Shown here: positions 54,918-55,087 of the stretch, piece after piece
Position numbering within the stretch: position 1 is the first letter of the stretch
Layout of the letters: each line of letters begins with the position of its first letter
DNA from: Candidatus Pacebacteria bacterium CG_4_9_14_0_2_um_filter_40_15
Lineage (GTDB): Bacteria; Patescibacteriota; Microgenomatia; UBA1400; PJMF01
Assembly (NCBI GenBank): GCA_002788675.1
Contig: PFRS01000002.1
Span: 1-63,065, forward strand
Length of the DNA stretch: 63,065 bases
Direction: 5' to 3'
Notes under the pieces: model-generated
Database searches by the model: none
What the model was told of the DNA's origin: nothing
Seen by the model: the letters and a program-made list of their open reading frames with translations, nothing else
Made by a program: the position numbers and the translations under genes

Positions 54918-54935
54918 TGATGCCCGACATGGATT
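54918..54935 (-). repeat. exact 18-nt copy of the tRNA-Gln 3' end (pseudo-3'-end)
   Basis: TGATGCCCGACATGGATT is identical to 55086-55103. Confidence 0.9.
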
Positions 54936-55024
54936 CACGATTCGCTGCTATTTATATCTACTTAAGGAAGCTCACATGCACTAAGCAGGAAGTTCTCAGG
55001 TGCTCACTTCTTGCTGGCGTGAAC
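54935..55024 (-). repeat. conserved non-coding modules shared with the tRNA-Gly (54935-54985) and tRNA-Arg (54981-55024) loci
   Basis: 44/51 identities to 34241-34291. 41/44 to 36543-36586 (reverse complement). Confidence 0.85.
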
Positions 55025-55051
55025 GATCTTCAATCAGTTCTGGACAACATA

Positions 55052-55076
55052 CAAAAAAAACAAGCGGATGCTTGTT
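55052..55076 (-). terminator. rho-independent terminator after tRNA-Gln
   Basis: Minus strand reads AACAAGC-atcc-GCTTGTT followed by TTTTTT. Confidence 0.75.
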
Positions 55077-55087
55077 TCTTTTGTATG

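Follow-up and report, generated by a model that had tools for sequence, protein, structure and literature searches.

Displaced tRNA fragments, the attL and attR ends of genomic islands in transfer RNA (tRNA) genes, were reportedly described by Williams in 2002, the T loop being one sublocation at which they occur. Cis-mobilizable elements (CIMEs) are integrase-less deletion derivatives of integrative and conjugative elements (ICEs), kilobases in size and flanked by attachment (att) sites, and are thought to depend on an enzyme acting in trans. Repeats behind a tRNA gene are also known from E. coli tyrT, where 178-bp repeats (RtT RNA, RF00391) each contain the tRNA 3' end. In the Patescibacteria (candidate phyla radiation, CPR), with genomes of about 1 Mb, few mobile elements have been recognised and gene exchange is poorly understood. 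Genomic islands integrated in tRNA genes are collected in the Islander database (PMC4383910), and the tycheposons found in the streamlined genomes of Prochlorococcus show tandem integrations separated by partial tRNAs, together with degraded remnants (bioRxiv 10.1101/2020.12.28.424599). The units analysed here lie behind tRNA genes of Candidatus Pacebacteria bacterium CG_4_9_14_0_2_um_filter_40_15, in a stretch of 63,065 nucleotides (contig PFRS01000002.1, positions 1 to 63,065, called the window below), and behind tRNA genes of its relatives. The complete copies carry a hairpin-rich core joined at one T-loop position to a copy of a tRNA 3' end, and their layout is the one known for integrative elements at the T-loop sublocation, which leave displaced tRNA fragments. 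We give a probability of roughly one half to the reading that they act at the tRNA T loop as miniature non-autonomous integrative elements or as attachment-site modules, and assign no enzyme to them.

The unit behind tRNA-Gln shows the full arrangement. The tRNA-Gln(ttg) gene (55087–55158, minus strand) is intact according to ARAGORN and the Rfam tRNA model (61.6 bits). Directly after its 3' end stands a bidirectional intrinsic terminator (55053–55083), the first part of the inserted unit, which consists of an A-run, an 8-bp stem (55058–55077) and a T-run; as the A-run flanks the other side of the stem, this terminator could stop transcription both ways. Then follow a spacer that is poorly conserved among units (55025–55052, minus strand), a conserved core of about 89 nt (54936–55024, minus strand; delimited by core alignments and detected by nhmmer with E values of 2e-29 to 6e-31) and a displaced copy of the tRNA 3' end, running from A58 of the T loop to the end of the gene (54918–54935, minus strand). 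An earlier note on this DNA had reported a hairpin with a T-run at 55059–55076, some 120 nt without coding sequence and a copy of the tRNA end that is exact over 18 nt. The hairpin stands, with the A-run to be added to it; the non-coding stretch is present but measures about 110 nt; and the copy is indeed exact, TGATGCCCGACATGGATT at 54918–54935 being identical over all 18 nt (18/18) to 55086–55103, that is, to the last ~18 nt of tRNA-Gln, which form the proximal copy of the direct repeat. A 17-mer from this end has only these two sites in the window even at up to 3 mismatches (0.10 expected). Weak similarity between the true and the copied end runs on beyond the tRNA (33 nt at 88%), and this A/T-rich extension may be convergence. 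The copy reads TCA as the gene does, and not CCA, which argues that it was made at the DNA level from the gene and not from the mature tRNA. The tRNA genes of the window do not encode CCA, and T-C-A follows the acceptor stem in both tRNA-Gln (55086–55088) and tRNA-Gly (34389–34391). Terminators of matching style stand behind tRNA-Gly, tRNA-Arg and tRNA-Gln in the window.

Behind the intact tRNA-Gly(gcc) (34391–34464, minus strand; ARAGORN and Rfam) the arrangement recurs. A first unit (34242–34390, minus strand) comprises a terminator (stem 34366–34381), a spacer and a core (34242–34328) with a type B inner hairpin, and ends at a copy of the tRNA-Gly 3' end with 2 mismatches in 17 (34225–34241, minus strand). 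A second copy (34131–34147, minus strand) matches at 17/17 positions, or 23/23 with the trailer, and is followed by a further terminator (34103–34118); the 94 nt separating the two copies form a second unit, which lacks the module shared with Gln. That module, given in the earlier note as 51 nt with 44 identities, reflects real homology, as 54937–54983 aligns without gaps to 34243–34289 (47 nt at 89%), but its extent was understated: the stretch in question (54936–54985 on the Gln side) is part of the ~89-nt core, and the Gln and Gly units can be aligned from the terminator to the pseudo-end, over about 150 nt, with few short gaps. Identity is about 55–65% in the terminator, spacer and inner hairpin and 75–88% in the last 56 columns. 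The 18-mer of the module, GGAAGCTCACATGCACTA, occurs in the window at the Gln and Gly loci only (0.04 expected), and two matches were obtained in 0 of 100 shuffled sequences. Part of the Gly spacer (34338–34355) is an inverted copy, at 15/18 positions, of the D-arm region of tRNA-Gly (34440–34457), and the other units tested have no comparable match. The idea that spacers are decayed tRNA bodies or inverted D arms was dropped, the match being significant in Gly only (p<0.01), marginal in Gln and not general.

Relatives of the core were found by scanning genomes and metagenomes for the exact 18-mer, a search whose reach is that of close relatives of the core. True homologues came from two GTDB genomes (loci L001, JACKFW010000001, and L004, CAJQIG010000001) and from the metagenome contigs L008, identical to L004, and L009; the remaining matches were chance. 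L017 and L025 were added via a syntenic tRNA cluster, fetched through a neighbouring cytidylate-kinase-like gene, and synteny via the 182-aa neighbour of tRNA-Gln yielded homologues on short or non-syntenic contigs. A profile search of 267 kb of non-redundant related DNA gave eight copies of the core, all of them linked to tRNAs. All seven complete copies adjoin a tRNA 3'-end copy in the same orientation; the eighth, behind tRNA-Arg of the window, is truncated. Outside the window the core adjoins the end of tRNA-Ser in L001 (17/17 to the gene of L009, the true tRNA not being within the 8-kb locus) and in L009 (3 mismatches, true tRNA 4 kb upstream), of tRNA-Asp in L004 (18/18, true tRNA 846 nt upstream), of tRNA-Arg in L017 (18/18, 158 nt spacing) and of tRNA-Gln in L025 (3 mismatches, 171 nt spacing), which with the window makes five tRNA species. 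What the earlier note had claimed from two loci, namely that one module is joined in the same orientation to the cognate 3' ends of different tRNAs, is borne out in 7/7 complete copies, and the scar of a single site-specific integrase is inadequate, as the note had supposed, for a core family that spans several tRNAs and genomes. The profile scan links 8/8 copies to tRNAs, and the 267 kb contain neither copies at other sites, as a generic dispersed repeat would have, nor a split long version of the core, as a larger enclosing element would have left.

The repeats are not restricted to units with a recognisable core. Exact or near-exact repeats of the 3' end lie in the same orientation 150–171 nt behind intact tRNAs, both in the window (Gln, Gly with two copies, Leu-tag and Lys) and in relatives (Arg in L017; Lys in L020, L025 and L029; Gln in L025). 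The Lys units of L020, L025 and L029 resemble the Lys unit of the window in length and differ from it in sequence. The tRNA-end copies of L001 and L004 read CCA, and the tRNA-Asp gene of L004 has no CCA; an origin from mature tRNA, in the manner of a retroviral primer-binding site, is to be set against the genomic TCA of the window copies, and the CCA of L001 and L004 is one base off the genomic version. Further truncated tRNA-Ser 3' ends (CACCTCCGC[C]A), each with a terminator after it, lie in L001 (1081–1300) and L009 (5005–5030), and in L001 there follows a degenerate left core half (GTTCACACCAG...), which suggests several nested or older insertions behind tRNA-Ser. A phage or plasmid origin found no match in IMG/VR (two patterns), INPHARED or PLSDB. 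Literature searches, whose coverage is incomplete, turned up no prior account of such units in Patescibacteria.

Read in the sense of the tRNA, the order of a unit is the tRNA 3' end, a trailer of a few bases, the A-run, hairpin and T-run of the terminator, a spacer of 25–45 nt, GGTTCR, the core, and the copied tRNA end from A58. The Gln core reads GTTCACGCC, an inner hairpin of type A, TAGTGCATGTGAGC and then GCGAATCGTG; the consensus of the family is CGCSMC, a variable inner hairpin, an invariant TAGTGCATGTGAGC, about 10–25 nt, and GCGARTCGTR. The inner hairpin comes in three types (A, B and C) that differ in sequence and all form a stem, and the type is independent of tRNA identity: type A occurs at Gln, Ser, Asp and Arg units, type B at Gly, Ser and Arg units. 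One end of the core is complementary to the other (TTCGC/GCGAA or TTCACG/CGTGAA); the two pair in 85–91% of cells versus 5–62% in slid controls, and these terminal pairings show no covariation beyond that of shuffles. The junction between core and tRNA copy falls at T-loop position 57/58 in every case. On the other side, six of the seven complete copies have GGTTCR ahead of the core (L017 has GTCG instead), and as this motif makes up the 5' half of a T loop, the core sits exactly where nucleotides 57 and 58 would join. The window Gln unit has GTTCA at this place, which matches A57 of its tRNA and is the single informative case; five others have GTTCG. The tRNA-end matches are 16–21 nt long and the duplications 16–23 nt, and the copied ends are decayed in the first Gly copy, L009, the Gln unit of L025, Lys and Leu.

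The distribution of units at orthologous tRNAs points to turnover. tRNA-Gly is occupied in the window species only and empty in L017, L020, L023, L025, L029 and L033; at tRNA-Arg, the window and L017 have a unit and L020 and L023 have none. The two tRNA-Arg units are orthologous, their trailer, terminator and spacer being ~70% identical, and yet they differ in the hairpin, which is of type A (in a truncated core) in the window and of type B (in a complete one) in L017. Where tRNA-Lys carries no unit (L023 and L033), no terminator hairpin follows the tRNA, and the trailer in L023 has TATCAAT. In L020 (2 of 4 copies) and in L025, a similar motif, ATCAAT, stands after the displaced Lys copy, and the terminator of the unit stands after the true tRNA, as predicted if insertion displaces the original 3' end. 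The window is 100% identical over 21 kb to GCA_002790935.1, which is the same strain.

Like units also occur among cassettes of genes. In L020 (GCA_020632255.1, JACKFX010000001) an array at 3278–7030 behind tRNA-Lys consists of single-gene cassettes between repeat blocks. Copies of the tRNA-Lys 3' end are exact at +156, +1406 and +2493 and diverged at +3653; the second to fourth each end a repeat block of ~320 nt, of which the middle two are 89–97% identical and the fourth ~76%, and at the first copy the true tRNA-Lys stands where the upstream part of the block would be. The cassettes carry an EamA transporter, an esterase, and an acetyltransferase plus a glyoxalase, and no integrase or recombinase was called near the array. 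The X segment of the repeat block was considered as a pseudo-tRNA-Lys and rejected as not significant. The only direct link of such repeats to a recombinase is an island in L033 (10903–14575), bracketed by copies of the tRNA-Leu(cag) 3' end at +526 and +3587. The island starts with a split Xer-like tyrosine integrase (11521–12256, minus strand) and also contains a GSDH gene; a hairpin of 26 nt is inserted after GGTTCG in its proximal copy, and the T arm is intact in its distal copy. Relatives of this integrase were not found in the window, the other loci or IMG/VR. In L023 (7813–9653; the same genome as L001) there is a gene for a large serine recombinase (589 aa), whose stop codon overlaps the tRNA-Lys 3' end by 4 nt and which adjoins a type I restriction-modification system and an AbiU2-like gene. 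Just outside the tRNA-Ser copy of L001 (7915–8000, minus reading), translation by eye gives the apparent C-terminal end of a DDE (rve-type) transposase.

We propose the following course for the tRNA-Gln locus. The 18-nt copy would be the original 3' end of tRNA-Gln, displaced by a gene-less unit that would lie between T-loop nucleotide 57 of the tRNA and the displaced copy. The unit would bring a replacement 3' end, which would keep the tRNA intact, and with it a strong bidirectional terminator, a short spacer and a hairpin-rich core of ~90 nt with complementary ends. A site-specific recombinase encoded elsewhere might move or exchange units in trans. In relatives, units of this kind bound gene cassettes. 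That the core is a T-loop-specific insertion or recombination module is suggested by the T-loop halves that bracket it in six of the seven complete copies. Since the T loop is common to all tRNAs, one module could be joined to different tRNA ends, and the tRNA parts on both sides would be flanks of the target. The earlier note had supposed elements that copy or capture the end of whichever tRNA they sit behind; nothing shows such an activity, and the flanks of a T-loop-specific site may be all that is seen. An intact tRNA may have been kept in any of three ways, namely by an element-borne end, by a two-step history (a small cassette of 3' end plus terminator, then insertion of the core into the displaced T loop) or by a staggered-cut duplication. 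The involvement of a recombinase at the junctions, its identity and the present mobility of the units are things that we infer.

Several observations weigh against miniature T-loop-specific elements. Classical tyrosine integrases are specific for one tRNA, and here a single core occurs with five of them. The two junctions, GGTTCR|CGCGAC and RTCGTR|AATCC, share no 6–8 bp overlap, and because this is the length that tyrosine recombinases need, the enzyme is left open. The constant size of the units (150–171 nt) speaks against larger islands that decayed at random. Neither in the 63-kb window nor beside any of the eight cores was a gene found for an integrase, transposase, reverse transcriptase or Cas protein. 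For types A and B, blocks from genomes with saturated spacers are ~95% identical, which, together with the retention of units at orthologous tRNAs, points to either selection for a function or a core that is mobile or exchanged independently. Finally, no excision product or empty-site allele was seen within a species. As for the gene content of the window, the called genes are all housekeeping or of unknown function, none is a Phage_integrase or Resolvase gene, the units (135–150 bp) contain no open reading frames (ORFs), and the ORFs neighbouring them have no match in PHROGs.

A bolder form of this reading is that the core is an undescribed miniature mobile module that recognises the universal T loop (nucleotides 57/58) irrespective of the tRNA, either as an attC-like folded site or as a guide scaffold, and that with a recombinase in trans it builds integron-like cassette arrays. 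We regard this as a tentative proposal, possible but doubtful.

An RNA product was considered next to mobility. The earlier note had named a conserved functional RNA as one of its two suggestions, and this has gained no positive support. Rfam 15 (including RtT, tmRNA and ribozymes) gave only tRNAs and 16S rRNA above the gathering threshold, and at E<=10 every non-tRNA match had an E value of about 0.1 or higher and a score far below its gathering threshold. A promoter scan that detected the tRNA promoters found no promoter-like site for the unit in either direction. Minimum free energy z-scores of about -3 on both strands come mostly from the terminator, consensus folds are weak (-5.1 kcal/mol in tRNA sense, -2.5 kcal/mol in antisense), several copies are decayed, and the search for compensatory substitutions that the note had proposed revealed no convincing covariation in the core. 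The hints as to strand conflict, since the G-U pairs of the outer helix favour tRNA sense, and a G-U pair of the inner hairpin and a UUCG loop favour antisense.

Among specific proposals of this kind, a convergent antisense small RNA (sRNA) would start near the tRNA-end copy, with that copy as its 5' seed, run through the core, stop at the shared terminator and act on the tRNA or its precursor. Such a layout, with a 5' complementary segment, hairpins and an intrinsic terminator, is that of a trans-acting sRNA; hairpins A, B and C all form stems, with the G-U pair of type A and the UUCG loop of type C lying on the antisense strand, and conservation of the core between genomes is strong. Upstream, however, homology ends exactly at the end of the tRNA copy and no promoter, conserved or consensus, is present, and the antisense consensus structure is the weaker of the two and has no counterpart in Rfam. 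The complementary segment is among the decayed parts in the five units named above, and three identical units in one cassette array, as in L020, would be senseless for a regulator of tRNA. We therefore hold an antisense sRNA to be unlikely.

A guide RNA, with the core as scaffold, the 17–20-nt tRNA-end copy as a 3' guide (in tRNA sense) and the TTCR of the T loop as a 5' protospacer-adjacent or target-adjacent motif (PAM or TAM), would send a trans-acting RNA-guided protein to the tRNA gene. A constant module is indeed followed by a variable segment that matches the neighbouring tRNA over 16–21 nt and starts right after TTCR, and the G-U pairs of the tRNA-sense consensus fold work on that strand only. 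Homing CRISPR RNAs (crRNAs) of CRISPR-associated transposons (CASTs) target sequences beside tRNA genes (PMC11656645), a further point for this proposal. Yet neither the window nor any locus contains cas12k, tnsB/C, tniQ, tnpB or iscB, there is no CRISPR array, the unit lies ~150 nt from the tRNA and not at the far end of a transposon, and three of the seven would-be guides have 2–3 mismatches, some of them near the PAM-proximal end. A perfect guide beside its own intact target would moreover be self-targeting, and no promoter-like site lies between terminator and core. This makes a guide RNA distinctly unlikely.

A target-duplicating insertion has a similarly small chance. Here a tRNA-less element made of terminator, spacer and core would enter at 57/58, either through staggered cuts or through target-primed copying of an RNA that ends in the terminator, and gap repair would duplicate the tRNA from nucleotide 58 to its 3' end. 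A cognate 3' end would then be explained for any tRNA without further assumptions, the distal boundary at A58 is sharp in all copies, and the proximal end of the insert is an intrinsic terminator, that is, a possible transcript 3' end. Casposons, which use Cas1 casposases, target tRNA 3' ends and duplicate them, and such an insertion can be likened to them as well as to retroposition of the type of short interspersed nuclear elements (SINEs). The variable length of the duplication (16–23 nt), the outer ends of the insert as a whole, which lack terminal inverted repeats, the GGTTCR ahead of the core, which is left unexplained, the lack of cas1, polB or reverse-transcriptase genes in the window and loci, and the L020 cassettes, which start with trailer-like sequence and not with a terminator, all stand against it. 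An origin without any mobility, by local tandem duplication of tRNA 3' regions and gene conversion between tRNA-downstream regions, with the module an ordinary dispersed repeat, would suit the look-alike terminators behind tRNAs and the second Gly copy, which is identical to the true end including 5 nt of trailer, but is very improbable, as in other genomes the core stands behind other tRNAs with spacers that are far less conserved or unrelated, orthologous tRNAs may or may not carry a unit, the junction falls at one T-loop nucleotide in all cases and the statistics of the 18-mer and of the tRNA-end matches exclude chance; purely local duplication is essentially excluded by the distribution across genomes.

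Other units of the window are incomplete or lack the core. The truncated core (36536–36590, minus strand; nhmmer E values of 3e-10 to 4e-7) retains the half with the type A hairpin, the right half being lost along with the copied tRNA end; this remnant follows tRNA-Arg(tcg) (36407–36481, plus strand) and a terminator (36485–36511), and its orientation relative to the tRNA is that seen at Gln and Gly. A decayed copy of the tRNA-Leu(tag) 3' end (30128–30144, plus strand) stands 152 nt behind tRNA-Leu (29910–29992), after a terminator and ~100 nt, and a decayed copy of the tRNA-Lys(ctt) end with 13/17 identities (48687–48703, minus strand) stands 154 nt behind tRNA-Lys (48841–48915), likewise after a terminator. 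The interiors of these Leu (29993–30144) and Lys (48687–48840) units, ~100 nt of hairpin-rich DNA, gave no alignment to the Gln/Gly module, and that of the Lys unit is different or strongly diverged. Such units close five of the six ends of tRNA transcription units in the window. A protein-coding function was rejected, as the core has stops in all frames of both strands, and a 111-aa ORF at 33955–34290 has no Pfam match; transfer-messenger RNA (tmRNA) or tRNA-like genes were likewise discarded, as ARAGORN and the tRNA model detect true tRNAs only. Elsewhere in the window, a single ORF of 515 aa (55807–57354, minus strand) joins a VKOR domain to dihydroorotate dehydrogenase, and the 5' end of a 16S rRNA gene (1–357, minus strand) runs off the window start.

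The units have most in common with tRNA-gene islands. Both show a direct repeat of the tRNA 3' segment that begins in the T loop, a tRNA that in the units, too, would be regenerated by the element, and a same-orientation fragment downstream; serial fragments (Gly in the window, Lys in L020) and presence or absence at orthologous tRNAs are also shared. The units differ in being only ~150 bp long and gene-less, with a terminator of their own and no integrase nearby, and in having one conserved end joined to five tRNA species and a core bracketed by both T-loop halves. An integrase inside the repeat-bounded segment, as tRNA-gene islands have, was seen in the separate L033 island only and in none of the units. 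Tycheposons likewise occupy several tRNA genes in a streamlined genome, and their remnants build islands of cargo genes, to which L020 may be compared; they are, in contrast, kilobases in size, encode a tyrosine (or serine) recombinase and replication functions of their own and have attachment sites of ~40 nt, and a conserved 90-nt hairpin core like that of the Patescibacteria units is not described for them. CIMEs share the att-like flanks and the lack of an integrase, whereas the units are uniform (150–171 bp) and recur at many tRNAs.

With integrons the array of L020 (3278–7030) shares single-gene cassettes between hairpin-rich sites of ~100–150 nt, comparable to the imperfectly palindromic sites of 60–140 nt that flank single-gene integron cassettes, and the ends of the core are imperfect inverted repeats. 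The sole recombinase seen near such repeats in the lineage is Xer-like, of the clade that includes IntI. Neither the array nor the window has IntI or a platform of attI and cassette promoter (Pc), however, an 18-nt tRNA repeat stands beside every core site, and read directly, the core ends GTTCRCG ... CGYGAAT are not the RYYYAAC ... GTTRRRY of attC. The delocalized homing crRNAs of type V-K and I-F CASTs and the omega RNA of TnpB resemble the units in a scaffold-like constant part, a short match to a tRNA end and a T-rich motif in the target, but the units have no effector or transposase genes (by Pfam and called genes) and no array, lie at another position relative to the tRNA and have decayed 'guides'. 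As to type V-K geometry, TTCR and then the tRNA-end match are found in the units, with no CRISPR repeat present for comparison. A miniature element of the IS200/IS605 family (a palindrome-associated transposable element, PATE) was also considered. The core follows TTCR and contains hairpins, but all copies stand in a T-loop context and not at arbitrary TTCR sites, neither tnpA (Y1) nor tnpB is present in the window or loci, and the 267 kb hold no long, split version of the core. The E. coli tyrT repeats and RtT RNA show no sequence or Rfam match to the units and lie in tandem in one operon, whereas the units are spread over tRNAs and genomes.

A family of 150-bp units would amount to a compact platform of gene exchange, analogous to tycheposon islands or integrons. 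Should the core prove to be a site that is guided by structure or by RNA and serves any tRNA, a new principle of targeting would be at hand; should it be an ordinary arm of an integrase site, it would still be a useful annotation, which explains much of the non-coding DNA behind tRNA genes and marks hot spots of integration. Compared with the known islands that leave displaced tRNA fragments, what differs here is a miniature, uniform and gene-less unit that brings its own terminator, and a single conserved core that stands behind five tRNA species.

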